64,000 nt of DNA from an uncultured Gammaproteobacteria bacterium (GTDB lineage Bacteria; Patescibacteriota; Patescibacteriia; UBA9934). The translations under genes were made by a program, and so were the position numbers. This document shows, in pieces, positions 3,111 through 49,339 of the stretch (position 1 is its first letter; each line of letters opens with the position of its first letter). The notes beneath the pieces are model-generated. The model did not search any database. It was not told where the DNA came from and saw nothing but the letters and a program-made list of their open reading frames with translations. The DNA lies in NCBI GenBank assembly GCA_964552565.1, contig CAZKGL010000001.1, forward strand, positions 435,061 through 499,060. Reading direction: 5' to 3'.

Positions 3111-3113
3111 AGG

Positions 3114-7502: not shown

Positions 7503-7568
7503 ACCGCCTCCATGCTACCGCACTCCACGCCATCGTTCCACAGGACTCCTGCCCTTCTGCGCTGTGCT

Positions 7569-7577
7569 TGCTATACT
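7569..7577 (+). promoter_or_regulatory. Extended -10 promoter element TGCTATACT upstream of the first BNR surface protein gene
   Basis: TGNTATACT motif 24 nt upstream of the ATG; the same motif recurs upstream of several other genes in the window. Confidence 0.45.
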
Positions 7578-7600
7578 TTCCCCAAACTTATCTTTTGCGT

Positions 7601-10081: not shown

Positions 10082-10109
10082 GGTGTCAGCTAATTTTCTG
10101 ACTTGCGCT

Positions 10110-12521
10110 ATGCGCCATTTGCTTCCCTTCCGCATCGCTTCGATAGGAGCGCTGCTTGTTGCGTCATGGTTCTTCAGTCACTCGGCCCTTGCGGGCTGGT
10201 ACACGCCCACGTCGGGCACGACCGCATCCCTCTACGACATCGACTACTACAGCGGCTACGTCGTTGCGGTGGGCTCGGGCGGGACAATCCGCTTTTCCGT
10301 CGATGCCGGACATTCGTGGTCAACGAGCACGAGCGGCACCACGTCGGCGCTGTACGCAGTCGATTCGGATAGCGGCTATGTCCTCGCCGTCGGCTATGGC
10401 GGCGTCATTCTGCGATCGACCAACTACGGCGCGACATGGACTGCCGTCACGAGCGGCACCACCGCGTCGTTGTACGACGTCATGATGAATCCCTACGGCC
10501 GGGCGTTCGCCGTCGGCTATGGCGGCGTACTCCTCACCTCAACGGACTACGGCGCGACATGGAGCGCACAGACTTCTGGTACGACGAACACGCTCCAGGC
10601 GGTTGACATTTGGGGCACCACCCGCGCCTACGCCGTCGGTTCGAGCGGCACCATCTTGTACTGGAACGGGACGACATGGAGCGCACAAACGTCCGGGACA
10701 ACGGAGACGCTGTACGGTGTCGCGATGTCCGGGACAACGGAAGCCTGGGTGGTGGGCTCCGGCGGCGTGGTACGGAAAACGACCGATGGCACGACGTGGA
10801 GCAGCGTCACGACGATTACCGGCCAAACGCTCTACAGTATCGAGATGTCGTCGAGCACGGCGGGCGGCATCATGGCAAAGACCGGCTTGTACGAAACCAC
10901 GAACGGAACGACATGGGCGGCAGCGTCGACCGGCAGCTGGTCGAGCGTATCCTGGGTGCTGAACGTCGATTACGGCACGATCCGTTTTGCCGTGGGCGCG
11001 AGCGGGAATATCCGTCGCTATGACCACTACGGCCCGGCTGTGGGTGCAGTAACACCGACGACTGCGCTCGAGGGCGTCCCGGTCACCTTCAGCGTTGACG
11101 CGACGGATGAAGCGGTCGTGACCCGATGCGATATCGAAATCCTTTCGGGTGACGGCAGCGGCGTCGTCCTGGACGGCGTGGACAGCGAAGATGACAGCTG
11201 GACGGCAAGCTATACGCTGAGTGCCGGCACCTACACGACCCAAGCGACGTGTTACGATCCGGCCTATAACTTTACGATGGGCGCAAGCAGCACCCTGACC
11301 GTCTCTGCGCCGGCGGACACGACCGAGCCCACTGTCGGGTCGCTCATCGTCGTCGAGGACGCCGTCGGGTCGCCGAGCGTATTCACGGTTTCGGCGTCGG
11401 ACGACGTCGGCATCGACTTCTGCACGCTCGTCATCTTGGAGGGCGACCTCGGCAGTGCGGGATTCCGCATGGCCATCCCGGCGTACGCCACCGCGGACAT
11501 GACCGGATCGGATGGTGCGTACACGGCAACATACACCTTTACTGCGGCAGGCGATTACACGGCATACGCGTACTGCCGCGATGCGGCGGGAAACCAGGCG
11601 AACACCGCGGATGCCATCTTTACGATTGACGCCGCGGCTGCGGCATCGGATACCGACGACACCGCGCCGACCATCGGGACGCCTTCCCCGACGAGCTTCA
11701 CGCTCGGCACCTCGCGCACGGTCACGGCGACTGTCAGCGACGACGTCGGCATCGAGAGCTGCGACCTCTTCATTGACGCTGAGAACGCCGGACTCATGAC
11801 GGTGAGCGGCGGGACAGCGAGCAAGTCCTACACCTTCTCGACAAACGACTGGGCCGACGGCGATACGGCGACGGTGACGGTGGAATGCGCAGACGAGGCC
11901 GGCAACTTCGACAGTACGTCGGTCGTCGTCACGCTCAGCGAGGCGGCGGTCGCGGATGAAGAAACGACAACGGAAGAAGAAACCGCGACGGATGAAGAAA
12001 CGGTAACCGTCGAAGAAGACCTGACAAACGAGGACGGCGACGCAGAGGCAGGCATGCTCATCAAACTCGCCTGCAGCGAAGGCGCGGACGTCAATGACCC
12101 GTGCAAAGCGGTCTACTTCTACAGCGAGTACGACGGCAAGCGCCACGCGTTCCCGAATGAGAAGGTCTACTTTACCTGGTACGCGAACTTCGACGAGGTC
12201 GCGGTCGTGAGCGACGAGTTCATGGCATCCCTCACCTTGGGACGCAACATCACGTACCGCCCCGGCACCCGCATGGTGAAGTTCATTACCGTCAACACGG
12301 TCTACGCGGTGACCCGAGGCGGCGTGCTGCGTCCCATCGACAGCGAGGAAACGGCCATCGCCCTCTACGGCGCGACGTGGAACCAGCAGATCGACGACAT
12401 CTCCGACGCGTTCTACGGCAACTATAGCTTCGGTGACGAAGTGACGAGCGGCGATGACTACGACGCGGAGACTGAGGAAGACGCCATCACCACGATCGAC
12501 GCCAACCTCCAGTGGCAGTAA
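10110..12521 (+). CDS. Paralogous large secreted/surface protein with BNR-like repeats, Ig-like repeats, an acidic linker and the same conserved C-terminal domain
   Basis: Signal peptide (MRHLLPFRIASIGALLVASWFFSHSALA); repeated TW-containing propeller-like motifs (SVDAGHSWSTSTSGTT, TNYGATWTAVTSGTT, TDYGATWSAQTSGTT, TDGTTWSSV); C-terminal domain GMLIKLACSEGADVNDPCKAVYFY...GTRMVKFITVNTVYAV...WNQQIDDISDAFYGNY shared with the first paralog. ATG at 10110; the listed ORF begins at an upstream GTG. Confidence 0.75.
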   Translation: MRHLLPFRIASIGALLVASWFFSHSALAGWYTPTSGTTASLYDIDYYSGYVVAVGSGGTIRFSVDAGHSWSTSTSGTTSALYAVDSDSGYVLAVGYGGVILRSTNYGATWTAVTSGTTASLYDVMMNPYGRAFAVGYGGVLLTSTDYGATWSAQTSGTTNTLQAVDIWGTTRAYAVGSSGTILYWNGTTWSAQTSGTTETLYGVAMSGTTEAWVVGSGGVVRKTTDGTTWSSVTTITGQTLYSIEMSSSTAGGIMAKTGLYETTNGTTWAAASTGSWSSVSWVLNVDYGTIRFAVGASGNIRRYDHYGPAVGAVTPTTALEGVPVTFSVDATDEAVVTRCDIEILSGDGSGVVLDGVDSEDDSWTASYTLSAGTYTTQATCYDPAYNFTMGASSTLTVSAPADTTEPTVGSLIVVEDAVGSPSVFTVSASDDVGIDFCTLVILEGDLGSAGFRMAIPAYATADMTGSDGAYTATYTFTAAGDYTAYAYCRDAAGNQANTADAIFTIDAAAAASDTDDTAPTIGTPSPTSFTLGTSRTVTATVSDDVGIESCDLFIDAENAGLMTVSGGTASKSYTFSTNDWADGDTATVTVECADEAGNFDSTSVVVTLSEAAVADEETTTEEETATDEETVTVEEDLTNEDGDAEAGMLIKLACSEGADVNDPCKAVYFYSEYDGKRHAFPNEKVYFTWYANFDEVAVVSDEFMASLTLGRNITYRPGTRMVKFITVNTVYAVTRGGVLRPIDSEETAIALYGATWNQQIDDISDAFYGNYSFGDEVTSGDDYDAETEEDAITTIDANLQWQ

Positions 12522-26512: not shown

Positions 26513-27310
26513 CTACGACAAGACGCCAAGGTACCAGTCGAGCATCCACGGCCCGAACACCATGACGATGACCGTCGCGAGCGCCAGGAACGTCCCGAAC
26601 GGCACATGGCTATCCAGTTTGCGATGGCCGAAGGCGATGAGGATAACGCCCGCAATCGCGCCGAGGACATAGGACCAGAACAGGGCGACGATACCGAGCG
26701 GCAGGCCGAGCAAGAAGCCCATGAGCAGCCCCATGCGGATGTCGCCGCCGCCGACCCAGCGCCCCTGCGAAACGAGATACTGCACCGAGAAGAACCCACC
26801 GAGCGCAAGCCCGCCAAGGAGCAGCGACCACGTCGACGCGCCGAGCACGAGGTTCGCGAGGATGACGATGATGACCGCGGGAATGGAAAACCGGTCAGGA
26901 ATGACGGAAAACCGGAAGTCGTACAGAAAAATGATGACGAGGAAGACCGCAACGATCGCATCGCGGATAAAAAGCAGCGCGTGTTCGGTACCGGTGATGT
27001 ACGGCGGGATGCCGACGCCAAGGAAGATGCGCGCGGCGAAGAGCGCGAACAAGAGGCCCATCGCAAGTTCCACGGCGGGGTACTGCCATTCGATTGCGGA
27101 AGAACACCGGCGGCAGCGGCCCTTGAGGGCAAAGAAACTCACGACCGGGATGAGGTCGAACCACGCGAGCGGCTCGACGCACGACAAACACTTCGCCCGG
27201 CTCATGAGCGGCAGCCCCGCTTTGGTACGCAACACGGTAGCGTTGACGATGCTGCCGGTGACGACGCCGAGGACGAACGCGAGGAGCAGGTACGCGATGA
27301 TTTCCCCCAT
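26513..27310 (-). CDS. pilD: Type IV prepilin peptidase (A24 family)
   Basis: N-terminal tetra-Cys motif (CLSCVEP...CRRCSS), multi-TM architecture, conserved Asp-containing loops. Confidence 0.8.
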   Translation of the reverse strand: MGEIIAYLLLAFVLGVVTGSIVNATVLRTKAGLPLMSRAKCLSCVEPLAWFDLIPVVSFFALKGRCRRCSSAIEWQYPAVELAMGLLFALFAARIFLGVGIPPYITGTEHALLFIRDAIVAVFLVIIFLYDFRFSVIPDRFSIPAVIIVILANLVLGASTWSLLLGGLALGGFFSVQYLVSQGRWVGGGDIRMGLLMGFLLGLPLGIVALFWSYVLGAIAGVILIAFGHRKLDSHVPFGTFLALATVIVMVFGPWMLDWYLGVLS

Positions 27311-28206: not shown

Positions 28207-29361
28207 CTATTCTTCGGCCGCGCGCATGGCGAGCCCGATGGCGATGCTGAACCGCGGGCCCACTTCTTCGAGCACCGGCCGGAGCGCCGCAGGCGCCGCG
28301 ATGCGCGCCCACGGGTCACCGATATAGACGTTCACGTTCAGTTCCTTGGTGAGGTATGGGTCAAGCGACGGCAGGTGCGCGCTGCCGCCGGTCACGATGA
28401 TCTTTTCCACCGTGCGGTTGTCGTGGAACGCCTGCTGCGCGTACAGCTCAAGCGCATACCGCAACTCATGCACGACCGACTCGAGCGCGTCTTTCACCAC
28501 CTTCGGCGGCTCTGTCTCGCCCGGCGAAAGCGCAAGGTCGCGCTTCATGCGCTCCGCGTCCTCGTAGCCCATGCCAAGGCTCGTCGCGAGCGCCTGCGTC
28601 ATGGCGCTGCCGCCGCCCTTCATGCTCCGCGCGAGGTACGGCACCCCTTTGTCGATGATGGAAATATTCGCCTGCGCAAACCCCATGTCCGCGACCATGA
28701 TGCGCGACTTGTCTTTGCCGACGAGCGACCGGATGAGCGCGAACACCTCGGTCTCGAGCGAGACGAGGTCGAGCTTCGCCTTCCTGAAGATGTCGACGTA
28801 CTTCTGGACGAGCGTACGCGGCGCGGCGGTCACGAGGACGCGGATGTGCTTTTTCTCCTCGGCCTTCGGTGCCTCGGGCGCTGCGGCCTCTTTTTGTTCC
28901 TGCTTCTCCTCCTTTTTCTCTTTCTTTTCCTGGCCAGCCTCCTTCGGGAGGAGTTCCTTGTCGAGCACGTTCGAGTCGACAATCATCTCCGCCATCGGGA
29001 GCGGCAGGAGCTTCGCCGTCTGCGTCTCAATCATCGCCTTCACTTCCTCCTTCGTCTTGACTTGCGGAATGACGACGATGGTTTGGAAGACCTGCGCGCT
29101 CGGCAACGCCGCGACCGCGCGGGTCGCCTTCATCCCCGAGTCTTTGATGATGGCGCGGATGAGCTCGACCGCCTTGTCGGGATTGTCGAGGAGCGACGGC
29201 GCCTCGGACGAAACCGCGGCGTACTCCGCGTAGCCGTACGTCGAAAGGCGGAGCCGCCCCTTCTCGGGGACAAGCTCGACGATCTTGATGCCGGACGGAC
29301 CGATGTCGACCCCGAGCATGCCGTCAAAGTGTTCTTCTTTCTTGCCTCCAAACAAGCCCAT
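28207..29361 (-). CDS. pilM: Type IV pilus assembly protein PilM (actin-like ATPase fold) with an internal Lys/Glu-rich insertion
   Basis: PilM N-terminal motif GVDIGPSGIKIVEL and C-terminal actin-fold motifs (IVTGGSAHLPSL); low-complexity insert KEAGQEKKEKKEEKQEQKEAAAPEAPKAEEKK. Confidence 0.8.
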   Translation of the reverse strand: MGLFGGKKEEHFDGMLGVDIGPSGIKIVELVPEKGRLRLSTYGYAEYAAVSSEAPSLLDNPDKAVELIRAIIKDSGMKATRAVAALPSAQVFQTIVVIPQVKTKEEVKAMIETQTAKLLPLPMAEMIVDSNVLDKELLPKEAGQEKKEKKEEKQEQKEAAAPEAPKAEEKKHIRVLVTAAPRTLVQKYVDIFRKAKLDLVSLETEVFALIRSLVGKDKSRIMVADMGFAQANISIIDKGVPYLARSMKGGGSAMTQALATSLGMGYEDAERMKRDLALSPGETEPPKVVKDALESVVHELRYALELYAQQAFHDNRTVEKIIVTGGSAHLPSLDPYLTKELNVNVYIGDPWARIAAPAALRPVLEEVGPRFSIAIGLAMRAAEE

Positions 29362-36450: not shown

Positions 36451-37564
36451 ATGCAGCAATGACGCCGCTACCGATGAGTTCGTCGCCGTCGTAGAACGCG
36501 ATGAACTGCCCCGGCGCGACGGCGCGCTGCGGCGTGTCGAAGGTGACGACCACCCCCGAACCCCCTCCATGAATGGAGGGGGACTTCGCTCCCTCTTGGC
36601 TACCCCCATTCATGGGGGCTAGGGGGTAGACGACACACGGGGCGAGCGGCTGGCGGTAGCGGATGCGCGCCGCGATTTTTTTGTTTTGCGCGTCCGTGAG
36701 GTTGCCCGGAACGGTCTCCGTCAGGTCCGTCGCAACGAGTGCGGAACGGTACAGCGCCGGATCCTCGTCCCCAACCGCGACCACGACCTCGTTCGTCTCC
36801 GGACGGCGTTCGACGACATAGAGCGGCGTCCCGCCGCCGACACCAAGCCCCTCGCGCTGGCCGATGGTGTAGAACGCGAACCCCTTGTGCGTGCCGAGGA
36901 CCTTTCCGTCCGTCGTCACAATGTTTCCCTCGTGCGGCGCAATGCGTTCGGCAAGGAAATCGACCATGTCGACTTTGCCGACAAAGCAGATACCTTGGCT
37001 GTCCTTTTTCTCCGCGACCGGAAGCGCAAACTTCCGTGCACGCTCGCGCACCTCGGGTTTCGTGTACTCGCCAATCGGGAAGATGACGCGGCGCAACTGC
37101 TCCTGCGTCAACTGACAAAGGAAGTAGCTTTGGTCCTTGTTCGTGTCGACGCCGGCATACAACCGCCCGTCCTTCACGCGGGCGTAGTGCCCGGTTGCCA
37201 CGAAGGCGCACCCCAGCGCGTCCGCTTCGCGGAGGAACAGGTCGAACTTCATGTACTTGTTGCACCGCACGTCCGGATTCGGTGTGCGTCCCGCCCTGTA
37301 CTCGGCGATCATGTACTCGTATACCTTGCGGCGATACTCCTCCTCAAAGTCGAACGTATGGAATGGGATACCGAGCTGCGCTGCGACCCGCATCGCGTCG
37401 CGCCGCTCCGCGCGCCAGCCGCAACTTTCGTCCTCAGTCCCGTCGCTCCAGTTCTTCATGAATCCGCCGACGACCTCATAACCCTGTTCCAACAGCAATG
37501 CCGCGCTGACGCTTGAGTCAACGCCGCCAGAGAGGCCCACAAGGACGCGAGGCTTCGGCTGCAT
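36449..37564 (-). CDS. mnmA: tRNA-specific 2-thiouridylase MnmA
   Basis: PP-loop SGGVDSSV, catalytic Cys region and C-terminal barrel (AVAPGQFIAFYDGDELIGSGVI); contains an in-frame family-1 repeat at 36552-36628. Confidence 0.9.
   Translation of the reverse strand: MQPKPRVLVGLSGGVDSSVSAALLLEQGYEVVGGFMKNWSDGTEDESCGWRAERRDAMRVAAQLGIPFHTFDFEEEYRRKVYEYMIAEYRAGRTPNPDVRCNKYMKFDLFLREADALGCAFVATGHYARVKDGRLYAGVDTNKDQSYFLCQLTQEQLRRVIFPIGEYTKPEVRERARKFALPVAEKKDSQGICFVGKVDMVDFLAERIAPHEGNIVTTDGKVLGTHKGFAFYTIGQREGLGVGGGTPLYVVERRPETNEVVVAVGDEDPALYRSALVATDLTETVPGNLTDAQNKKIAARIRYRQPLAPCVVYPLAPMNGGSQEGAKSPSIHGGGSGVVVTFDTPQRAVAPGQFIAFYDGDELIGSGVIAA
36552..36628. repeat. GC-rich double-hairpin repeat (family 1, in-frame copy within mnmA)
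   Basis: ~90% identical to 40752-40828; hairpins CCCCCTCCA-TGAA-TGGAGGGGG and CTACCCCC..GGGGGTAG; encodes PLAPMNGGSQEGAKSPSIHGGGSGVV. Confidence 0.7.
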
Positions 37565-38960: not shown

Positions 38961-39827
38961 TTATGTCCCCCAAGAAGAACGAATGACGATGCCGGTCGGG
39001 AGTTCGAATGCTCGCGGCGTGGTTTCTTTCAAGGTCAACTCGACCGAGGACAACGACTGCGCACACGGCACCGTCGTACGCACGAGATTCTCGATGGCGA
39101 GCGCCGGGAATCCGAGCGAGTACGCGTTCACAAGGAGATGGCCGCGTTCCTTGTTCAGCAATTGCGCACACATGTCGAGCAGCTTCGGCAAGTGCTCTTC
39201 AAACTTCCACAGCTCCCCCTCCGGGCCGCGGCCGAACGCGGGCGGGTCCATGACGATCGCGTCGTACGTATTGCCGCGGCGGACCTCGCGCCCGACGAAC
39301 TTCATCACGTCGTCAGTGATGTACCGCACCGTGCGGTTGCCAAGGCCGGACAACTCGATGTTTTCCTTGACCCACGCGATCGCCGGCTTGCTCCCGTCGA
39401 CATGGACGACCTCGGCGCCCGCCGATGCGCACGCGAGCGTCACGCCGCCGGTGTAGCCAAACAGGTTCAACACCTTCATGCCCGGCTGCACGACGCCGCG
39501 AAGATACTTCCAGTTCGACGCCTGTTCCGGAAATAACCCCGTGTGTTTGAACGACGTCGTGCGGATGCGGAACCGCAGGTCCTCCCACTGCACGGTCCAC
39601 GACGACGGCAACGGACGGATGATATCCCAGTCCCCTTCACGACCGGTCCGCGTGTACGTCGCCCACGCCTTGTTCCAGGCATCGGCGCCAGACTTTCGCC
39701 ACAACGCCTGCGGCTCGGGACGTACCATGACGACGTCCCCATAGCGCTCGCATTTTTCAAAATCGCCCGAGTCGATGAGTTCGACGTCGGACCATGGTGC
39801 GGCCTCCCGTGTGAGCGGCGTCGCCAT
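38961..39827 (-). CDS. Class I SAM-dependent RNA methyltransferase (RlmI/YwbD-like family)
   Basis: SAM-binding motif VLNLFGYTGGVTLACASAGA, acidic motif DVMKF, post-motif DAIVMDPPAFGRG. Confidence 0.7.
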   Translation of the reverse strand: MATPLTREAAPWSDVELIDSGDFEKCERYGDVVMVRPEPQALWRKSGADAWNKAWATYTRTGREGDWDIIRPLPSSWTVQWEDLRFRIRTTSFKHTGLFPEQASNWKYLRGVVQPGMKVLNLFGYTGGVTLACASAGAEVVHVDGSKPAIAWVKENIELSGLGNRTVRYITDDVMKFVGREVRRGNTYDAIVMDPPAFGRGPEGELWKFEEHLPKLLDMCAQLLNKERGHLLVNAYSLGFPALAIENLVRTTVPCAQSLSSVELTLKETTPRAFELPTGIVIRSSWGT

Positions 39828-39828
39828 A

Positions 39829-40638
39829 CTACGCGGTCAAGCGATCCGCAAACACGGTGAGGAGCAGCAGGCCGAACGCAATGCGATACAGCGCAAACAC
39901 ACCGAACCCCGTCTTGCGGATGATAAAAAACAACAAGCGGATGGCAATGACGCCAAAGATGAGCGCGGAGGCGAAACCGATACCGAGCATGCCCCATGCG
40001 AGGTCTGTCGCCCCGGCATCGACAACATCCCACGCCGTCTTAGCGCCTGCGCCAACGATGGCGGGTATTGCGAGGAGGAAGGAAAAGCGCGCCGCCTGCC
40101 CGCGGTCCATGCCGGAGAACAAGCCGATGGTCATGGTCGCGCCCGACCGCGAGGTGCCCGGGATGAGCGCGAAAGCTTGCGCGACGCCAACGGCAACCGC
40201 CTGGCCCCACGTGACATCGTGGACGCGACGCGCGTCGATGGTGCGCTTCTTTGGGACGTAGTCGGCAATGCCAAGCAGGATGCCCCACGCAATGAGCATT
40301 GCCGCGACGACCGGCAGCGTGCGCACTGCGTCCATCATGCTGCCGAGCGCGGCGCCGACGATGACCGCCGGGATGGTCGCCACGAGCAGCTTCACTGCCA
40401 ACGACCGGTCGGCCCGGACCCTTTCGCGGATGCCCTTCACGAGGGCGCCGATTTCGCGGCGCATGGCGATGACGATGGCGAGCAGCGTCGCAAGGTGGAC
40501 CGCCACATCGAACACCAACCCTTGCGCCTCCCAACCGAAGAGCGCCGGAATCGCAAGAAGGTGGCCGGAGCTCGAAATGGGGAGGAACTCGGTGAGGCCC
40601 TGGACCGCGCCAAGCACTGCCGCCTCAAGGAACGTCAT
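39829..40638 (-). CDS. uppP: Undecaprenyl-diphosphate phosphatase
   Basis: UppP/BacA signature (GAVQGLTEFLPISSSGHL...PGTSRSGATM) with 8 TM helices; its start overlaps the stop of the upstream ATPase gene (ATGA). Confidence 0.85.
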   Translation of the reverse strand: MTFLEAAVLGAVQGLTEFLPISSSGHLLAIPALFGWEAQGLVFDVAVHLATLLAIVIAMRREIGALVKGIRERVRADRSLAVKLLVATIPAVIVGAALGSMMDAVRTLPVVAAMLIAWGILLGIADYVPKKRTIDARRVHDVTWGQAVAVGVAQAFALIPGTSRSGATMTIGLFSGMDRGQAARFSFLLAIPAIVGAGAKTAWDVVDAGATDLAWGMLGIGFASALIFGVIAIRLLFFIIRKTGFGVFALYRIAFGLLLLTVFADRLTA

Positions 40639-42530
40639 AGCTCTTCGTCAAACGTTATGCGCTCGCCGGGCATGACCTGCTGCGGCGCGGCGGCTGGCGC
40701 GTCCCCGCCGTTCCCGCGGTTGCGGCGTCGGCGTCGGCGTTTGCGGCCAACCACCCCCGAGCCCCCTCCATCAATGGAGGGGGACCCGGTTCCCTCTTGG
40801 CTACCCCCATTCATGGGGGCGAGGGGGTTGAGCATGTCGCCTGCACGTGGTGCGGCGTCGTCGTGCGCCGGGACGGGTTTCGGCGGTGACGCCTCGGGTT
40901 TCTTTACGGGGGAAAGTGCGGACAACGACATGCTTTCGCCCGCCTCCCGCGCAACAGGCTCACCGTCATGCACCTTCGGCGCCGGCCCGGACTCCTTGCC
41001 CTTCTGGCGTACCTCCTTCTTTTCCTTCCCCTTCTTCCGCTCCTCCATCACGATGGGGTGGCACTCTTCACAGTAAATCGGGCGCGACCGGTCAAGCTCC
41101 ACCGGCAACAAAAACTTCTTCCCGCAGCGGGTGCAGTCATACTCGTGGCTGTACCGCTTCTTTTTGTCCTCCTTCTTTTGCGCCGCGACCGCGGCGAGCG
41201 CTCCGGCCACGTCGACGTTCGGGTCAAACCCCGCCCACGTCGCGACGTGCTCTTCAATCTGCGCCTTGTTGCCGGCGTACCGTTCGCGCGACTGCGCGAT
41301 GACCCGCTCCGCGCTGCCCGTGCGCTGGGCGATGGGCGGCAGCGTCTGCGCCGAAAACGGATGGCTCGTCACGCCGTCAATCATGAGTTTGACGTAGATG
41401 GCGTGCTTCGGGAGGTTGATGATGTCTTCCGGCGTGAACCGCGGCATGAGCTCGTTCTCGAGGAAGACGGCGTCCGGCGAGCCGACGCGGAAGAACACCA
41501 TGCTGCCGACGTTGCCGAACACTGCGTCCCGCACCGCAGTCGACGTCCCCTGCTCGAGCTGGGCGATGTACTGGTGCGCCATGATGAGGTTGAGCCGGTA
41601 CTTGCGCGCTTCAGAGAGCACGCTTGCGAACGATTCGACGGCAAAGTTCTGGAATTCGTCGACGTACAGGTAGAAATCGTTCCGCTCGGACTCCGGGACA
41701 TTCACGCGCTCCATGGCCGACATCTGGATCTTCGTGATGAGCATGCCGCCGAGGAGGCGCATCGCATCTTCACCGACGCGCCCCTTGGAGAGGTTGATGA
41801 TGAAAATCTTCTGGCTGTCCATGATGTCGCGGATGTTGATGGACGACTTCGCCTGCGCGACGATGTTGCGAATGACCGACGACGACAAGAATTGGCCGAT
41901 CTTGTTTTGGATCGGCGCAACCGCCTCGGTCGCGAATTTCGCATCATATTGGGCGAACTCCTGCAGCCAGAACTGTTTGACGATCGGGTCGGTGACGTTC
42001 GTGATGATCTGCGCGCGGTAGTCCTTATCCGACAGCATGCGATTGATGCCGAGCAGCGTGGATCCCGACGTGTCGAGGAGCGCAAGGATGGTGTTATTCA
42101 AAATGTACTCCATGCGCGCCGACCACACGTTCTCCCAGATCTTTTTGAACACCGACATGAGGCTCGACGCGACGAGGTGCTTCATGGTCGGATCCACCGA
42201 CTCGAGGATGTTGAAGCCGATCGGGTAGTCGAGGTCCGACGGATTGAAATACACGACGTCGTTGATGCGCCAGGACGGGATGTAATCGATCAGCTTTTCC
42301 GCGGTGTCGCCGTGCGGATCGACATAACAACACCCGTGGCCGGCGTAGATGTCGGCCAGGATCATGTTCTCGAGCAGCGTCGTCTTGCCCATGCCGGTCT
42401 TTCCGATGACGTACATGTGCCGGCGGCGGTCGTCGGTCTTGACGCCGAACTTGCGCATCGCATTCCGGAAGTTGGTCTTGCCGAAATAGATGACGTCGCT
42501 CTCGTGGTCATGTTCGTAACGCATTGGCAT
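40635..42530 (-). CDS. FtsK/HerA/TraG-superfamily P-loop ATPase resembling type IV coupling proteins (TraD/VirD4-like), soluble, with a C-terminal zinc ribbon and basic tail
   Basis: Walker A VIGKTGMGKTT, YVDPHGD (like the DPKG motif of TraD/VirD4), Walker B FYLYVDEFQNF, Zn ribbon YDCTRCGKKF...IYCEECH, Arg-rich tail; contains an in-frame family-1 repeat. Confidence 0.65.
   Translation of the reverse strand: MPMRYEHDHESDVIYFGKTNFRNAMRKFGVKTDDRRRHMYVIGKTGMGKTTLLENMILADIYAGHGCCYVDPHGDTAEKLIDYIPSWRINDVVYFNPSDLDYPIGFNILESVDPTMKHLVASSLMSVFKKIWENVWSARMEYILNNTILALLDTSGSTLLGINRMLSDKDYRAQIITNVTDPIVKQFWLQEFAQYDAKFATEAVAPIQNKIGQFLSSSVIRNIVAQAKSSINIRDIMDSQKIFIINLSKGRVGEDAMRLLGGMLITKIQMSAMERVNVPESERNDFYLYVDEFQNFAVESFASVLSEARKYRLNLIMAHQYIAQLEQGTSTAVRDAVFGNVGSMVFFRVGSPDAVFLENELMPRFTPEDIINLPKHAIYVKLMIDGVTSHPFSAQTLPPIAQRTGSAERVIAQSRERYAGNKAQIEEHVATWAGFDPNVDVAGALAAVAAQKKEDKKKRYSHEYDCTRCGKKFLLPVELDRSRPIYCEECHPIVMEERKKGKEKKEVRQKGKESGPAPKVHDGEPVAREAGESMSLSALSPVKKPEASPPKPVPAHDDAAPRAGDMLNPLAPMNGGSQEGTGSPSIDGGGSGVVGRKRRRRRRNRGNGGDAPAAAPQQVMPGERITFDEEL
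40752..40828. repeat. GC-rich double-hairpin repeat (family 1, in-frame copy within the T4CP-like ATPase gene)
   Basis: Near-identical to 36552-36628; encodes PLAPMNGGSQEGTGSPSIDGGGSGVV in the C-terminal tail. Confidence 0.7.
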
Positions 42531-42538
42531 AGCGCAAA

Positions 42539-44170
42539 CTACAGCACGGGCAAATTCCCCGGCGCGTCGTCGTCATCACTGATCGGTTCTGCGGCAAGGT
42601 TCAGGCCCGGCGGAAGCGGCGCAGGTTTGCCTGGTTGCGGGACGAACTCGGCGTGCGCAGGGGCGGCATGCGCCGGCGCAGCGGCGTGGGCCGGAGCACG
42701 GGCCGGGGCACCGCCGGTCGGCGCATGCGGCGTCGGGACGGATAACACCCCCGCCTCTTCTTCGCCGACCCCGTACTCCCCGCCCTTCTCCTTCATGAGT
42801 TCCTTCCAGTCCGGGAGATCCGGCGCATCGTCGTCCGCGAACGGCAATGCGAGCGGCGCTTCTGCGCGGCGGGCGCCCGACGTGGCGAGAATCGGGGTCC
42901 GGGCGTCGGCCGGCGGGAAGTGGAACAGCGACGCAAGTTCCTCCGAGTTCAGAATGTACGGCGGCGCGCCGGCACCAAGCTGGCGGCCCTTGTAGCGCTT
43001 CACCAGCCGCGTCATGCGCGCAAAAATCTGCCACTCCAACCAGAAGTAGTCGTCCTTCGGCGTGGCCGGGTCGTGCATGCCGAACTTGTTCATGTTCAGG
43101 TGCGCGAACGGATGGAACATGCCCTTGATGACCGACGCAATGAGCGGCTTGCGGTACGTCTCGTGCACCGCGCAGTACACCACGCGGATCTTTGTATACC
43201 ACCCGAGCTTGCTGATCTTCTCCGCAATGGCGTCCGAAACACTGCGCTCGGTCGGCGTCATCTTGAACATGCGGAAATCGTCCGCCTTCTTCTCTTCGTG
43301 GCCGCCCTCGCCCATAAGGTCCAGCCCGGCGGTCTGCTTCAGCACCTCGTTCGGCAACCAAGCAACGCCGCCCATGATCTGCGACGTCATGCTCGGCGCG
43401 TGCTTCTCCTCCTTGCCCATGAGCTTGTTGAGGTACTTCTCGCCCTCCTTCGCCCAGTCCTGTTCGTCCGGCTGTTGGATGATGATCTGCACCCACAAGT
43501 GCTCGCCCTTCTGCATCTTGCCCATGATCTCGATGACGTTGAGGAGCGGATCCTTAAACCGCATGTCCTTTTCGCCAAGATGCTCAAAATCCGCGTACGT
43601 ACGGATCGGGTAGAACATCGGCTTGCTGAGCTTCATTTCGCTGCCGAAGACGAGGTGCGTGTCGTTCGGATACTTGTCCGGGATGCGGTCGACGTAGTCC
43701 TCGACCTCCATGATCTGCGCCTCGGGGTACTGTGCGTAGAGCGCGGCCTCGACAAGATCGCGGTATTTCTCCGGCGTACGGATGTAGAACTTCACGTCGC
43801 CTTCGCTGCCCACGATCTCGAAGCTGAAAAATGCCTGGAACTTGCCGAGAAGATGCGCCTCCTTCCACGTAATCGCCGACTTTGAGCCCGCGATGTTGTT
43901 GAAGAAGTTCTCCATGCCCTTCGGCGTGTTGATGGCGCCTTGGGGGATGCTGATGTTGAGGAGCACCCAGTCGATATGCGCAAGGTACTGCCCTTGCTTG
44001 TAGTCGACCCATACTTCCGTGAAGCCCCAGATGAGGACGCCGAAAATAGGGATCCACCCGAACACGAGCAGTGCGTGCGACGCCATCTCGAAGACCGGCG
44101 TGGTCGCGATGTAGTGATCGACGGCCGGTGGCAGGTTGAATGCGATGCCGAGCATAATTGCTCGCATCAT
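42539..44170 (-). CDS. Membrane protein partner of the T4CP-like ATPase (N-terminal TM helices plus a large soluble domain and a Pro/Ala-rich acidic tail)
   Basis: ATG at 44168-44170 (the listed ORF starts at an upstream TTG); TM segments (IMLGIAFNLPP, HALLVFGWIPIFGVLIWGF); ends 8 nt before the ATPase gene. Confidence 0.55.
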   Translation of the reverse strand: MMRAIMLGIAFNLPPAVDHYIATTPVFEMASHALLVFGWIPIFGVLIWGFTEVWVDYKQGQYLAHIDWVLLNISIPQGAINTPKGMENFFNNIAGSKSAITWKEAHLLGKFQAFFSFEIVGSEGDVKFYIRTPEKYRDLVEAALYAQYPEAQIMEVEDYVDRIPDKYPNDTHLVFGSEMKLSKPMFYPIRTYADFEHLGEKDMRFKDPLLNVIEIMGKMQKGEHLWVQIIIQQPDEQDWAKEGEKYLNKLMGKEEKHAPSMTSQIMGGVAWLPNEVLKQTAGLDLMGEGGHEEKKADDFRMFKMTPTERSVSDAIAEKISKLGWYTKIRVVYCAVHETYRKPLIASVIKGMFHPFAHLNMNKFGMHDPATPKDDYFWLEWQIFARMTRLVKRYKGRQLGAGAPPYILNSEELASLFHFPPADARTPILATSGARRAEAPLALPFADDDAPDLPDWKELMKEKGGEYGVGEEEAGVLSVPTPHAPTGGAPARAPAHAAAPAHAAPAHAEFVPQPGKPAPLPPGLNLAAEPISDDDDAPGNLPVL

Positions 44171-45153: not shown

Positions 45154-47175
45154 TTATTTGATGCCCAGGAAGAACAGCCGCTTGCGCAACGCCTGCGACC
45201 GGCTCACCGCGATGAGCAGCGAGCGCACGAGGACCAGCGCGCAGAAGAGCGAGACGAAGATACCGATCATGAGCGTCAGCGCGAATCCCTTGATGAAGCT
45301 CGTGCCCATCGTGAAGAGGATGAACGTCGCGATGAGCGTCGTCGTGTTGCCGTCGCGGATCGACGGCGTCGCGCGCAGGACCGCCTCCTCAACCGCGGTC
45401 GGCAGGTCGCGCCCGCTCCAGAGCTCTTCCTTCAAGCGCTCGAAGATCAGCACGTTTGCGTCCACCGCGATGCCGACCGAGAGCACGAAGCCCGCGATGC
45501 CCGACAACGTCACCGTGACGCCGAACACCTTGTACAGCGCGAGGTTGATGGCGCTGTAGACGAGGAGCGCGATGACGGCAAGGAAGCCCGGAAGGCGGTA
45601 GTACAGAATGAGGAATGCCGTAATGAGGGCGAACGCGATGAGGCCTGCCGTGATGCTCGCCTCAAGCGACGCCTGGCCGAGCGTCGGGCCGATCGTCTGC
45701 TGCGTGATGACCGAGATCGGCACCGGGAGCGCGCCGGCGTTCAGGCGCTGCGCAGTCTCCTTCGCCTCGACGACCGTGAACTGGCCGGTGATCTGCGCTT
45801 CGCCGCCGTAGATCGCCTGTTGCACGACCGGCGTCGTGACCGGCTCCCCGTCGAGGAAGATGCCGATGACCTGGCCGATGTTCGCTTCGGTGAGGTCCGC
45901 AAACAACTCCGCGCCCTCGCTGTTGAACGAGAGGAGGATGTACGGGGCGCCGGTGTTCGGGTCGAACGCGACCGAGGCGCTCTTCACATGCTTGCCCGAA
46001 AGCGCGGTGTTCTCCCACGGGTCGGCGTCGATGATGTCGGAGAGCGTCGTCCACGGCATCTCGACGTGCGCGAGTTCGTACGTCTTCACGGATTCGGAGC
46101 GCTCGCGGTAGATGAGGTGGTAGCCGAACTCCGTTTCGACCACGTCGGAGACCGTGCCGTCCTCCATGGCGAAGAGGGTGTCCTCAAACGACTGCACCAT
46201 CATTCCTTTGGTGACGGTGCCGAGGTCGCCTCCGGTGGAATTCGCGCCCGGCTCGTCCGAATTTGCCTTGGCGAGGTCGGTGAAGTTTTCCGTCGTCGCT
46301 TCCGTCTTGAGGCCGTCGATGAGGGCGCGCGCCTCTTCCTTGGAGCGCGTCTCGCCGCAGCGGGTCGCGCCGGCGTAACAAATGAGGATATGCGACGCAT
46401 CGACTTCCTCTTCGGCGCCCGTCCCCATGAAGTCGACGATGTGCATGCTCGACGCGCTCTCGTACAGGCCGTCAACGACGCCGGTGCGGCGGCCGAGGTC
46501 CTTCACGAGGTCCCCAAACACCTCGTCGTCCTCGCGGACCATGCCAAGGTAGCCGCCGGTGTCCTTGGTCGCGGTATCGATGGAAAATTCCGTCGCGAGG
46601 GCGGCGAAGTCCTCGCCGTCGAGCGCGCGGTCGAGCACCGCAAGCGCGGCGTCGCGCTCCGACTCCTGCGCAGCGTCAATCTGCGCCTGCTGCTCGGGCG
46701 TTGCCTCGGTCGGAACGTCCGCGGTTGGGGTTTTGAACTCCAGAACCGGCGTCTCGCCGATGATGCGCGTCGCTTCGGTCGCGTCCTGGATGCCCGGGAG
46801 CTCGATGATGACGCGGTAGTGCCCGTCGGCGATCGTCGTTTCCACGCGCGATTCGCTGACGCCGAGCGCGTTGGCGCGGCGTTCGATGACGTCGCGGACG
46901 CCTTCGAGCGCATCGGCGCGGTCGGCCTCCGGGATGGCGGACATGTCCGCCTCGTAGACGAGGTGCACGCCGCCGGAGAGGTCGAGGCCGAGGGTGAAGT
47001 CGGTGTCCGGGAACGTCGGCAGCGCAAACCCGATCTTCTCGCGGATCGCGGCCATGGCGTTATTCCACGGCGTCGGGAAGGCGGTGAAGCCGGCAAAGAA
47101 CAAGATTGCAAGTACCAGAGCCACGCGCAGCACACTCTGACGAGTGGAGCGCGCCATAATCGGTCGCAAAGGCAT
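45154..47175 (-). CDS. secD: Protein translocase subunit SecD with two parvulin-type PPIase domains in its periplasmic head region
   Basis: SecD N-terminal motif LGLDLSGGVHLVYEAD, P1-base and TM2-6 core; between them two parvulin signatures (GEDFAALATEFS...GGYLG...HIV and HILICYAG...FTDLAKANSDEPGANSTGGDLGTVTKGMMVQSFEDTLF...ETEFGYHLIY). Confidence 0.85.
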   Translation of the reverse strand: MPLRPIMARSTRQSVLRVALVLAILFFAGFTAFPTPWNNAMAAIREKIGFALPTFPDTDFTLGLDLSGGVHLVYEADMSAIPEADRADALEGVRDVIERRANALGVSESRVETTIADGHYRVIIELPGIQDATEATRIIGETPVLEFKTPTADVPTEATPEQQAQIDAAQESERDAALAVLDRALDGEDFAALATEFSIDTATKDTGGYLGMVREDDEVFGDLVKDLGRRTGVVDGLYESASSMHIVDFMGTGAEEEVDASHILICYAGATRCGETRSKEEARALIDGLKTEATTENFTDLAKANSDEPGANSTGGDLGTVTKGMMVQSFEDTLFAMEDGTVSDVVETEFGYHLIYRERSESVKTYELAHVEMPWTTLSDIIDADPWENTALSGKHVKSASVAFDPNTGAPYILLSFNSEGAELFADLTEANIGQVIGIFLDGEPVTTPVVQQAIYGGEAQITGQFTVVEAKETAQRLNAGALPVPISVITQQTIGPTLGQASLEASITAGLIAFALITAFLILYYRLPGFLAVIALLVYSAINLALYKVFGVTVTLSGIAGFVLSVGIAVDANVLIFERLKEELWSGRDLPTAVEEAVLRATPSIRDGNTTTLIATFILFTMGTSFIKGFALTLMIGIFVSLFCALVLVRSLLIAVSRSQALRKRLFFLGIK

Positions 47176-47258
47176 AGTGGCCGCATTCTAAGCCAAATGG
47201 CATGTCTCTACAAGCCGCGTCGGCGCGAAGCTATACACAGCCGAAAAAGACGGAACGA

Positions 47259-47267
47259 TGCTATACT
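47259..47267 (+). promoter_or_regulatory. Extended -10 element TGCTATACT upstream of the 47291 gene
   Basis: Motif lies 24 nt upstream of ATG 47291; the listed ORF start (47258) lies inside or at this promoter, so 47291 is preferred. Confidence 0.45.
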
Positions 47268-47290
47268 TGGTGCAACGTTTTTACATCCTT

Positions 47291-49339
47291 ATGGGAAAGA
47301 AAGGAACAACGGTCGAAGGTGGGCTCGCCGGGCTTGGCGCAGCCATTGAAGCACAGGGGAAGCAGGCGGCCGCACCGGCGCCCGAGGCGGCTCCGGCAAA
47401 AGCGCCGGCGGCAAAGGCGGAAAAAAAACCCGCGCAACCTCCCGCGCCGAAAAAGAAGGCAGCCCCAGCGCCCGCACCGGCGTCGGAAGTCAAAAAGGCT
47501 GCTCCGCGCTCCGCGCGCCAGGAACGGCAGGCCAGTGCGACGACGCCGCAACGGGTGGAAACTGCGCCCGAGGCGGCACGGCGCGTGATGCGCGAAGCTC
47601 AAGAACTGCGTGACCGTGAGTATAGGGATGCAACCGCGCTCTTTGAGGAAACGCGTGCGGGAATCCAGGAAATCGATGGCGGCGACCCTCGCATCCAAAA
47701 GCTCCCTGAAACGAAGGCGCTCCGTGCCAAACTCTTCAAGGCAAACGAAGGGGCGCTGCGCGAGATGACGCAGTATGAGTACCACATGCTCTTGCCCGAC
47801 CTCGCGGCCGAGCTTCAGCGTATTGATGCGGCACGTGCGGGTAACATGGAAGATGAGGATTTGAAACGGCGTGCACACGAAGTCAATGAGCTCATTAACG
47901 ACATCGACGATCGGGCGGCGCAGTTCAAGATTGGTGAGTACGCGGTAAAGAAGGAGAAAAAGGCCGCGGCTCCAACGGAAGTCGCCCCGGAACCTGCGCC
48001 AAAGGCCGAGGTGGCTCCGGCGCCCGCTGAACCCAAGGTCGAAGAACTCGACACGGATACGCTCATCGCCAAGGAGCGCGAGCGGCGCGAAGCGGAGATT
48101 ACGGCCGCGCAGGCCGAGCTCGCAGGCATTGAACCCGACATCGCGAAGCTGAGCGCCATCCCGAAGCGCGAACGCACGCTTGCCATGCAGCAGCGGCTCG
48201 ACCAGCTTGAAGCGCGGTCGTTGGAATTGAAGAAGGCGTTGCCGGCTGCAGAGGCGGTCGTGGAACAAACCCCAGACCTCGGTCCGGAAGCGAAGAAGTA
48301 TCTCGGCGCCATCGAAAAGGTCCGCAAGAGCGCAACAGGCCTGCGCGAATTGAGCGAAGGTTTCTTGAACGAAAAGGCCGCGGTCGTCGCCGCGAACGCG
48401 GAGATCGCACGCAACCATGAAACAGTCGAGGCGACGTTCACCGCGCTGCGCGACGATATCAATGAGAAGCTGAAGGCGCTGCCAGACTACATGAAAGACG
48501 CCCTCTCCGCGGCGGTCGGCAGCAAGCGTGCACCGAAGGATGCTGGGCAGCTGACAAAGCTGAAAATGTGGTTCGATGCCTGGAAGGGCAAAGTGAAGCC
48601 GGGTTTCTGGAGAAAAAACTTCGGTGACTGGGATTACGAGAAGATCCAGGAGCTGGAGGCGATGGCCGAGGATCCGCGCATTGCGGAAATGGAGGCCCTG
48701 GAACAGCAGAACGACGAGATCCGCCTCCGCGGCGTATCGAGCGAACAGGAGCAGCATCGGTACATTACGAAGATCGAGGAGTACGCCTCCGCGATGGCGA
48801 ACGAAGTCCCCGCCGTTCCTGAGGGGCTCACAAAGGATGAACAGGCCGCAATAAAGGCGACGTTCGACGAGATCAACCGCGAGATGAACCTCGTGAAGCT
48901 CCCTTCCGAAGTCAGCCGAGCGGCGTCACGCAACGTCGAAAAGTTCTTCAAGAACATGGGCCATGAACGCGACCTCGCCAGCGGGAAGATGACGCCAGAG
49001 CAGGCGCGCGAAAAGAAGGCGGCAGAGCACGTCCCGGAGGTCATGAAGCTGTCGGAAGATGTCGATATCGAGTTCCGGCTCCTCGACTTGGCCAAGAGCT
49101 ACGGCAGCGCGCTGCAGGGAATGAAAAAGGAATCCCCGCATTACGCGGAAACCTGGGCGAAGAAGCATGCCCTCGAATTCCTCGCGCATCGCAAGTACGT
49201 CGCAAAAGGATTCTTCATGGCAGACATCCAAAAAGCGGCAAAACGCGACCTCGGCGCCGAACTCGACCGTGCGACCATCGAGGAAGCCTGGGCGCACGCC
49301 TTCCAGATCAACCGCGACACCGCGCTTGCCGCGGCGTAA
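47291..49339 (+). CDS. Hypothetical large protein (~682 aa) with an Ala/Pro/Lys-rich low-complexity N-terminus and long predicted coiled-coil regions
   Basis: AAPAPEAAPAKAPAAKAEKKPAQPPAPKKKAAPAPAPA then heptad-like charged helices; no family recognised. Confidence 0.55.
   Translation: MGKKGTTVEGGLAGLGAAIEAQGKQAAAPAPEAAPAKAPAAKAEKKPAQPPAPKKKAAPAPAPASEVKKAAPRSARQERQASATTPQRVETAPEAARRVMREAQELRDREYRDATALFEETRAGIQEIDGGDPRIQKLPETKALRAKLFKANEGALREMTQYEYHMLLPDLAAELQRIDAARAGNMEDEDLKRRAHEVNELINDIDDRAAQFKIGEYAVKKEKKAAAPTEVAPEPAPKAEVAPAPAEPKVEELDTDTLIAKERERREAEITAAQAELAGIEPDIAKLSAIPKRERTLAMQQRLDQLEARSLELKKALPAAEAVVEQTPDLGPEAKKYLGAIEKVRKSATGLRELSEGFLNEKAAVVAANAEIARNHETVEATFTALRDDINEKLKALPDYMKDALSAAVGSKRAPKDAGQLTKLKMWFDAWKGKVKPGFWRKNFGDWDYEKIQELEAMAEDPRIAEMEALEQQNDEIRLRGVSSEQEQHRYITKIEEYASAMANEVPAVPEGLTKDEQAAIKATFDEINREMNLVKLPSEVSRAASRNVEKFFKNMGHERDLASGKMTPEQAREKKAAEHVPEVMKLSEDVDIEFRLLDLAKSYGSALQGMKKESPHYAETWAKKHALEFLAHRKYVAKGFFMADIQKAAKRDLGAELDRATIEEAWAHAFQINRDTALAAA

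Follow-up and report, generated by a model that had tools for sequence, protein, structure and literature searches.

We analysed a stretch of 64,000 nucleotides (nt) of contig CAZKGL010000001.1 (positions 435,061 to 499,060; assembly GCA_964552565.1), called the window below, which has a GC content of ~62% and belongs to a genome of Candidatus Uhrbacteria (Patescibacteria, candidate phyla radiation). Our subject is a pair of genes on its minus strand, upstream of uppP, one for a soluble ATPase of the type IV coupling protein (T4CP) family and the other for a membrane protein of the DUF8128 family, referred to as the partner. A preliminary description, made from the sequence alone, had proposed this two-gene module. 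Both open reading frames (ORFs) were found where it had placed them, the partner gene upstream and its end separated from the start of the ATPase gene by 8 nt. The two genes proved to be a conserved unit, side by side in some lineages of Patescibacteria and fused in others.

42539..44170, minus strand: partner gene; 543 amino acids (aa), membrane protein with a single pass, family DUF8128 (PF26449)
40635..42530, minus strand: ATPase gene; 631 aa, TrwB/VirD4-type T4CP-like P-loop ATPase (Pfam, Foldseek, NCBI name), free of transmembrane (TM) segments (no hydrophobic window)

The NCBI model of the ATPase starts 2 aa later (629 aa, 100% identical) and is named 'type IV secretion system DNA-binding domain-containing protein'. 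The start codon of the partner is possibly Met6 (MLGI..., at 44155), where most homologues begin in the alignment.

A gene pair kept together, split or fused

The surroundings of the pair were surveyed by searching the partner profile against one genome per species, which gave 79 loci; loci with enough downstream sequence were counted as testable. In 72 of the 73 testable loci, which came from Uhrbacteria, Moraniibacteria and other Patescibacteria, the ATPase gene followed directly 3' of the partner gene in the same orientation. Co-occurrence in related genomes had been proposed as a check on the module, and by this count the upstream gene was strongly co-conserved. SecF was encoded directly upstream of the pair in 58 of 71 testable loci, and the pair survived a change of synteny, being flanked by SecDF and uppP in Uhrbacteria-like loci and by RpoD and MnmA in Moraniibacteria-like loci. 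The partner was as low as ~31% identical in loci in which the ATPase was still ~57% identical.

At two loci, L080 and L081, the pair was found as one ORF of 840 aa with the order TM segment, DUF8128, ATPase. All of the 120 best homologues of the fused protein were also fused, including those of WWE3, and the fused proteins carry PF26449. Because the two products are joined into one polypeptide in other lineages, which is strong evidence, the split products are considered to act as one unit, and they very probably bind each other. The idea that the partner provides a membrane anchor in trans draws its strongest support from this adjacency and from the fusions. The fused gene of WWE3 was located among genes of DnaB, EF-P, RuvC and GyrA. 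Thus, housekeeping surroundings were found in several lineages (SecDF, uppP and a methyltransferase; RpoD and MnmA; and the WWE3 set), in line with the earlier view that the module is core and not plasmid-borne.

Several loci deserve a comment of their own. L001 (GCA_016177675.1, JACOUU010000015.1, 1866-3568) is an NCBI assembly of the organism of the window in which no more than the C-terminal 283-290 aa of the partner were present or called, with an opposite-strand ORF of 168 aa where the 5' half should be. Both the window and the Logan contig L002 have an intact gene, and the truncation is probably a problem of assembly or a frameshift. A scan of viral contigs gave one fragmentary locus only, L083 (IMG/VR UViG_3300009537_000513, 81-461, viral-class contig), in which the last ~40 aa of DUF8128 run directly into the initial ~86 aa of the ATPase, with no match past this ATPase start. 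The Uhrbacteria-type order SecDF-DUF8128-T4CP-uppP was seen in L003, L009, L013 and ~30 more loci from species-representative metagenome-assembled genomes (MAGs) titled 'uncultured Gammaproteobacteria bacterium', and one such MAG was titled 'Candidatus Kapaibacterium'; these titles look wrong.

Architecture, relatives and surroundings of the two products

The ATPase carries the following features, among them every one that the preliminary description had pointed out (Walker A, YVDPHGD, Walker B, the CxxC ribbon and the Arg-rich tail).

42381..42404, minus strand: Walker A, GKTGMGKT, aa 43-50; invariant in 120 homologues, matching the TrwB and DotL P-loops in alignment
42306..42326, minus strand: YVDPHGD, aa 69-75; aligns with 'VDPNGD' of TrwB and 'YVDGKGD' of DotL
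41817..42191, minus strand: all-alpha insertion between the Walker A and Walker B strands, aa ~114-238; helices only in the AlphaFold2 (AF2) model
41643..41675, minus strand: Walker B, FYLYVDEFQNF, aa 286-296; from sequence, aligned with TrwB and DotL
41061..41135, minus strand: CxxC-x17-CxxC zinc ribbon, aa 466-490; from sequence, a pair of beta-hairpins in the AF2 model
40638..41060, minus strand: disordered basic C-terminal tail; Lys/Arg-rich, low predicted local distance difference test (pLDDT) values in the AF2 model

The family has >8000 homologues, and the motifs were invariant in the 120 aligned close homologues, so they are not due to chance. Classification with Pfam profiles assigned the ATPase to the coupling proteins, as had been expected. 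TrwB_AAD_bind (54.3 bits, cut-off 20.5, spanning aa 33-350), T4SS-DNA_transf (32.7 bits, cut-off 20.1) and TraG-D_C (30.0 bits, cut-off 22) scored above their cut-offs, while DUF87 (23.0 bits, cut-off 23.2) and FtsK_SpoIIIE (16.4 bits, cut-off 24) stayed below. No Pfam match to CagE_TrbE_VirB, AAA_10 or P-loop_TraG was obtained. An assignment to a KAP or AAA+ regulator, which would have spoken against a T4CP-like identity, was not seen: no such family scored above its cut-off, and only weak and short matches of the P-loop region appeared below it (AAA_22, AAA_16, AAA_19, nSTAND). The NCBIfam equivalogs for particular TraD, VirD4, CedB and CedD families all scored far below their cut-offs. When the PDB was searched by sequence, only DotL and TrwB were matched, near the P-loop and Walker B.

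The AF2 model of the ATPase had a pLDDT of 75 (core 80-95). Foldseek found TrwB as the nearest structure (E ~1e-11, TM-score 0.60, ~410 columns), followed by Cag-beta (6e-10), HerA (1e-7), DotL (3e-7) and VirB4 (3e-7 to 2e-6). The TrwB alignment uses TrwB-deltaN70, which includes the all-alpha domain, and in the model the insertion at aa 114-238 corresponds to this T4CP domain. Neither a hydrophobic TM window in the sequence nor a TM helix in the model was detected in the ATPase, and the lack of an N-terminal anchor that had been noted before was confirmed. We concluded that the ATPase is a member of the coupling protein family lacking a TM domain (TMD).

Beyond the core, two helices and the well-modelled zinc ribbon (pLDDT ~90) are followed by ~130 disordered Lys/Arg-rich residues, in which aa 543-618 have a pLDDT <50. 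The tail contains a Lys-rich block (aa 497-513), an Arg run (RKRRRRRRNR, aa 596-605) and the terminal motif MPGERITF (aa 620-627), which recurs as PG[EQ]R[IV]xF in Uhrbacteria-like loci and in L066-L071. Every split ATPase orthologue of L001-L078 that was complete had the zinc ribbon, whereas the fused protein of L081 did not; the profile matches of the ribbon were sub-threshold (zf_Tbcl_2, 21.5 bits; TIGR04272, 20.4 bits).

The coding sequence of the tail also holds an in-frame, GC-rich palindromic element of ~80 bp (40749-40828), of which a second copy lies in mnmA (36549-36627), both on the minus strand. The copies are 91% identical, share an identical 29-mer and fold strongly (z -2.9 and -5.0). 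The mnmA copy breaks the tRNA_Me_trans_C match in the C-terminal domain. The element was not present in the ATPase orthologues of other species, and its 29-mer had no match in the JGI metagenome collection. Rickettsia has similar palindromic elements, likewise in frame.

The partner is divided into three parts.

44006..44077, minus strand: N-terminal TM helix, aa 32-55, HALLVFGWIPIFGVLIWGFTEVWV; conserved hydrophobic stretch inside model helix 39-65
42836..43993, minus strand: DUF8128 alpha/beta core, aa ~60-445, probably cytoplasmic; from conservation, pLDDT, hhalign and Foldseek
42542..42835, minus strand: disordered C-terminal extension; pLDDT mostly <70, <50 in several stretches

Homologues of the partner numbered 444, and the 120 listed (49-77% identical) all carry the precomputed annotation PF26449, that is, DUF8128. 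Membership of the window partner was read from these annotations; the Pfam set that was scanned did not contain this model, and neither that set nor NCBIfam gave a match. An exhaustive profile search with the partner retrieved 2471 representatives at 50% identity. PDB searches with partner alignments, by sequence and by profile, returned nothing meaningful.

The AF2 model of the partner had a pLDDT of 82, with values >90 across most of the core, and the alpha/beta domain was modelled confidently over aa ~60-430. Two short helices precede the TM helix, and the fused homologue of L081 has an equivalent N-terminal TM segment followed by RR. The preliminary description had given the partner 543 aa, N-terminal TM helices and a large cytoplasmic domain; the size and the N-terminal TM location were correct, but one clear TM helix was found, not several. 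We infer that the DUF8128 domain faces the cytoplasm, because the ATP required by the ATPase is cytoplasmic and the L081 fusion showed no further TM segment between the two domains. Conserved motifs of the core are YAQYPEA (145-151), FEH (195-197), KDP (206-208), EELAxLFHFP (410-419) and RRAEAPxxLP (434-443). In the extension, a lineage-specific PGxPAPLPPGL motif was aligned at aa 511-525, and the terminal motif AP.NLP[VILM] (aa 536-543) was present in nearly all split partners of the 79 loci.

Relatives were then found in plasmid and type IV secretion system (T4SS) settings. A tblastn search of plasmids with the ATPase gave 470 records at 21-39% identity; the same kind of search of the plasmid collection with the partner gave no match. 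One plasmid, of Embleya, encodes an 812-aa T4CP beside genes for PrgI/VirB3-like, VirB4-like (P-loop_TraG, AAA_10), Replic_Relax and NlpC/P60 proteins, and the N-terminal 400 aa of this T4CP consist of a TM helix and a region matching the DUF8128 profile. This N-domain has only 3 plasmid relatives. When DUF8128 was compared by hhalign with the N-terminal ~400 aa of Streptomycetaceae T4CPs of 812-819 aa (three sequences), the match had a Prob of 93.2 (E 3e-7, 321 columns) and included the ELAxLxHxP...P motif. A 395-aa ORF of the Natrinema plasmid pNATPE02, located directly upstream of a T4CP-like gene and overlapping its start, matched DUF8128 with a Prob of 96.7 (E 4e-10). Since the profile matches both the N-terminus of the Streptomycetaceae T4CPs and the Natrinema ORF, DUF8128 is, as judged by profile comparison, the N-terminal module of a monoderm and archaeal T4CP subtype, and the Uhrbacteria pair is its split form.

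The nearest ATPase relative outside Patescibacteria was a stand-alone soluble T4CP-like protein of 395 aa (39% identity) on a plasmid of Sulfitobacter mediterraneus (L084, 5983-7170). Its gene is flanked by recombinase and transposase genes, no membrane partner is annotated next to it, and the protein has no zinc ribbon.

The window genes examined were housekeeping genes, coding for RpoD, a DEAD-box helicase, a DsbA-like protein, MurB, a LepA-type GTPase, MnmA, a RluA-type synthase, UppP and SecDF. At its stop, the ATPase gene shares 4 nt with uppP (39829-40638; BacA in Pfam, 241 bits), and a gene for an S-adenosylmethionine methyltransferase of the RlmI/Cons_hypoth95 type (38961-39827) follows 1 nt past uppP. 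This spacing suggests that the module is co-transcribed with the neighbouring housekeeping genes; promoter and terminator scans were at chance level. A partial type IV pilus set (PilD, 26513-27310; PilM, 28207-29361) lies elsewhere in the window, as had been reported. The role in DNA uptake or export, or in host interaction, that the preliminary description derived from this presence is conjectural.

Some other genes of the window have features of their own. SecD (45154-47175, minus strand) contains a PpiC/parvulin-type peptidyl-prolyl isomerase domain at aa 254-358 (Rotamase_3, 124 bits), which sits inside the extracytoplasmic P1 region and makes the protein a SecD-foldase fusion. Divergent from secD, a 693-aa protein rich in Ala, Lys and Glu is encoded at 47258-49339 on the plus strand and had no Pfam match. 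Two tandem paralogues of 812 aa (7568-10006 and 10083-12521, plus strand) carry hydrophobic segments near the N-terminus, match BNR/YCF48-like propellers and contain bacterial Ig-like domains; they are probably surface proteins.

Possible function of the pair

The best explanation, towards which we lean with moderate confidence, is that the pair forms a coupling protein of two polypeptides, tethered by DUF8128, that feeds a substrate, probably nucleic acid, to a T4SS-like apparatus encoded elsewhere. The partner is very probably anchored in the cytoplasmic membrane by its single N-terminal helix and exposes its DUF8128 domain of ~400 aa to the cytoplasm. The ATPase is a nucleotide-binding domain of the TrwB/VirD4 type that contains an all-alpha insertion and lacks an anchor of its own. 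If it behaves like TrwB and like TraI/TraJ of plasmid pIP501, it would form a ring on the partner, tethered to the membrane and presumably hexameric. By the same kind of analogy, ATP would be used to take up the substrate and pass it to an envelope channel, of which the likeliest candidate would be the T4SS-like apparatus of Patescibacteria elsewhere in the genome. The zinc ribbon, the basic tail and the terminal peptide motif may recruit substrates or adaptors, as do the C-terminal extensions of TraD and DotL. Nucleic acid would be the likeliest substrate because of the basic tail and the DNA-transfer ancestry of the family. Among 3,035 assemblies of Patescibacteria, T4CP homologues were reported in 2,918 and T4SSs, detected by VirB4, in 2,417 (PMC12102498), and the T4SS cluster of Southlakia was described as having no recognisable coupling and relaxase proteins (PMC10633639).

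Several observations weigh against this explanation. No T4SS gene or relaxase gene was found among the window ORFs scanned, a subset of all its ORFs, and none was found within 10 kb of the fused gene of WWE3; the preliminary description had likewise noted no other T4SS genes near the pair. The sole testable exception to the adjacency, L079 in a Parcubacteria MAG ('viral-cat_58_25'), has a DUF8128 gene (2057-3301) without an ATPase gene, with RpoD upstream and MnmA ~630 bp downstream. In the published survey, T4CP homologues were found in more assemblies than VirB4, only 148 of the 5,713 T4CP homologues of Patescibacteria were near virB4, and exaptation of these homologues was suggested by the authors (PMC12102498). 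The T4CP homologue of Southlakia epibionticum was reported as non-essential while its T4SS was essential (PMC12102498); that gene may or may not be of the DUF8128 type. Relaxases were rare in the phylum, with 109 in 103 genomes (PMC12102498), and for this reason classical conjugation is unlikely.

Part of this evidence favours a second explanation, which we regard as possible rather than probable: that the same two-part motor was exapted and works independently of a T4SS as a chromosomal DNA-handling translocase, for example in DNA import together with competence or the type IV pilus, in the manner of CedD. The core housekeeping surroundings in several lineages, the greater frequency of T4CP homologues over VirB4 and their rare adjacency (PMC12102498), and the type IV pilus genes in the window are consistent with it, and the zinc ribbon and the Lys/Arg-rich tail would fit nucleic-acid binding. 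Patescibacteria are naturally competent (PMC12857230), and CedD is a precedent for a chromosomal VirD4-like ATPase serving relaxase-independent DNA import (PMC11823120). However, the pair is not linked here to comEC or to pilus genes, which are >11 kb off, the NCBIfam scores of the ATPase for CedD (23.2 bits, cut-off 600) and CedB (17.2 bits, cut-off 700) are far too low, and the fused forms have no zinc ribbon. To our knowledge, bacterial competence systems use ComFA and not a T4CP.

Two further alternatives arise from the fold of the partner. When the partner model was compared with the PDB by Foldseek, full-length chains of TrwK/VirB4 took all eight top places (E 5e-5 to 3e-3, prob 0.91-1.00), with TM-scores of only 0.25-0.30. 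The structure 4ag6, which contains only the C-domain of VirB4 and was matched by the ATPase model, was not among the 50 listed matches of the partner, so the resemblance points to the VirB4 N-domain. Hhalign of the partner with pSK41 TrsD, pSK41 TrsE and an alignment of Streptomycetaceae VirB4 gave a Prob <1, and Pfam gave no CagE_TrbE_VirB match for the partner. The modelled fold of the partner resembles VirB4/TrwK weakly, probably in the N-domain, which is a lead and not a result.

On the more ambitious of the two alternatives, which we consider improbable, DUF8128 would be a true homologue of the VirB4 N-domain, the combination of DUF8128 and T4CP would keep an ancestral two-domain form, and canonical T4CPs would have swapped the N-domain for a TM domain. 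The unit would then be a near-universal core gene of Patescibacteria that serves to take up or exchange DNA from the host, or another macromolecule, without a relaxase and by way of a pilus-bearing T4SS-like apparatus, in parallel to Ced/Ted.

The other alternative, that the two genes encode the N-domain and the ATPase domain of a diverged VirB4-like ATPase that energises the assembly of a pilus or channel, is quite unlikely. The TrwK/VirB4 matches and the missing 4ag6 would agree with it, as would the length of the fused form (~840 aa, VirB4-like in length and domain order) and the position of TrsD directly upstream of VirB4 in pSK41 (PMC12102498). The ATPase, however, is far better matched by T4CP profiles and TrwB (Foldseek E 1e-11, compared with 3e-7 for VirB4) and lacks the three VirB4-related Pfam matches mentioned above; the low TM-scores and the absence of a profile-profile signal to VirB4, TrsD or TrsE also argue against it. 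In addition, the Embleya cluster holds a fused homologue together with a separate genuine VirB4.

It is very unlikely that the ATPase is a component of anti-phage defence (MADS mad8-like or HerA-like). PADLOC matched it to mad8 (59.5 bits, E 9e-17, aa 34-357) and weakly to HerA and DndH, most likely because of the shared T4CP/HerA-type fold. We rejected this reading, since the partner had no PADLOC match and no defence genes adjoin the pair, whose neighbours are SecDF, uppP, the methyltransferase, RluA and MnmA; near-universal vertical conservation among housekeeping genes is also unlike that of defence islands. Least probable of all is an accessory role in Sec-dependent protein export, suggested by the position of the pair directly downstream of secD-secF and the recurrence of SecF upstream, and rejected because Moraniibacteria-like, WWE3 and other lineages keep the pair or the fusion without this linkage; we know of no Sec component that is a T4CP-type ATPase.

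The annotation of the ATPase as a T4SS DNA-binding-domain protein, the counting of T4CP homologues in the phylum and the cataloguing of DUF8128 in Pfam are already known. In the literature searched, which gave nothing relevant on PF26449, DUF8128 or mad8, four things appear to be undescribed: the obligate DUF8128-T4CP unit with its alternation of split and fused forms; its homology to the N-terminus of actinobacterial T4CPs and to the haloarchaeal plasmid pairs; the conserved zinc ribbon of the ATPase; and the possibly VirB4-like fold of the partner.

A large part of bacterial diversity belongs to Patescibacteria, tiny symbiotic bacteria whose cultivated members live as epibionts of other bacteria. 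A T4SS was essential for epibiotic growth in the one species tested and its cluster had no recognisable coupling protein, and T4CP homologues without an assigned role are scattered elsewhere in Patescibacteria genomes (PMC10633639, PMC12102498). Our results give this orphan T4CP family a concrete architecture and candidate partners, in the form of a two-gene or fused DUF8128 unit conserved in the lineages sampled. The domain is shared with the N-terminus of coupling proteins of actinobacterial T4SS clusters and with haloarchaeal plasmid genes of T4CP-like type, and its sequence relationships suggest a probable role, the membrane docking of the T4CP motor, for a domain of ~2,500 sequence clusters. 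If the resemblance to the VirB4 N-domain is real, it bears on the divergence of the two ATPase families of T4SSs.

Comparison with known systems

The ATPase is closest to the T4CPs TrwB (R388) and VirD4, which gave the best Pfam and PDB fold matches. Like them, it has an all-alpha insertion in its nucleotide-binding domain, and its Walker A, VDPxGD and Walker B motifs can be aligned with theirs; its C-terminal extension could recruit partners. Unlike them, it has no N-terminal TM domain, is only ~15% identical and carries a zinc ribbon and a basic tail, and the pair is chromosomal, in a housekeeping operon, with no adjoining T4SS or relaxase gene.

TrsD of pSK41/pGO1 is a free-standing protein like the N-domain of VirB4 (PMC12102498). 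The partner is comparable to the VirB4 (TrwK) N-domain and to TrsD in its top PDB matches and in the position of its gene, TrsD being likewise upstream of an ATPase gene. It differs in the low TM-scores and the lack of sequence-profile similarity, and its ATPase is T4CP-like, not VirB4-like.

In Sulfolobus, the gene of the VirD4-like ATPase CedD lies away from the remaining ced genes; DNA import cannot proceed without CedD, some orthologues of which lack a TM domain (PMC11823120). The window ATPase resembles CedD/TedD of archaeal Ced/Ted DNA import as a chromosomal VirD4-like ATPase that would work without a relaxase, but it is not an orthologue of CedD or CedB by the NCBIfam scores above, and a DUF8128 partner is not reported for CedD.

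In pIP501, the TMD-less T4CP TraJ is proposed to be recruited by TraI, a membrane protein encoded just upstream (PMC4981023, PMC7434980), and a subfamily of 'T4CP lacking TMD' is recognised (PMC7434980). Here too, a gene for a membrane partner is immediately upstream of that for a soluble T4CP ATPase. TraI, however, has 143 aa and no detectable similarity to DUF8128 (hhalign Prob 0.2), TraJ is marginally similar to the window ATPase (BLASTP 20 bits), and both belong to a plasmid tra operon with a relaxase. The likeness is one of arrangement and not of descent.

The long T4CPs of Streptomycetaceae (Embleya, Streptomyces) have a TM segment and a DUF8128-like domain followed by a T4CP ATPase 28-31% identical to that of the window. 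They differ in being single polypeptides without a zinc ribbon, and the Embleya copy lies inside a T4SS-type cluster. In pNATPE02 of Natrinema pellirubrum, an archaeal megaplasmid, the ATPase (a 'TraM recognition domain' protein) is much longer (1003 aa), and there is an extra large upstream gene annotated as T4SS conjugative DNA transfer family, with Pfam matches only below threshold. The arrangement in this plasmid is nevertheless the split one of the window, with a DUF8128-like ORF upstream of a gene for a T4CP-like ATPase.

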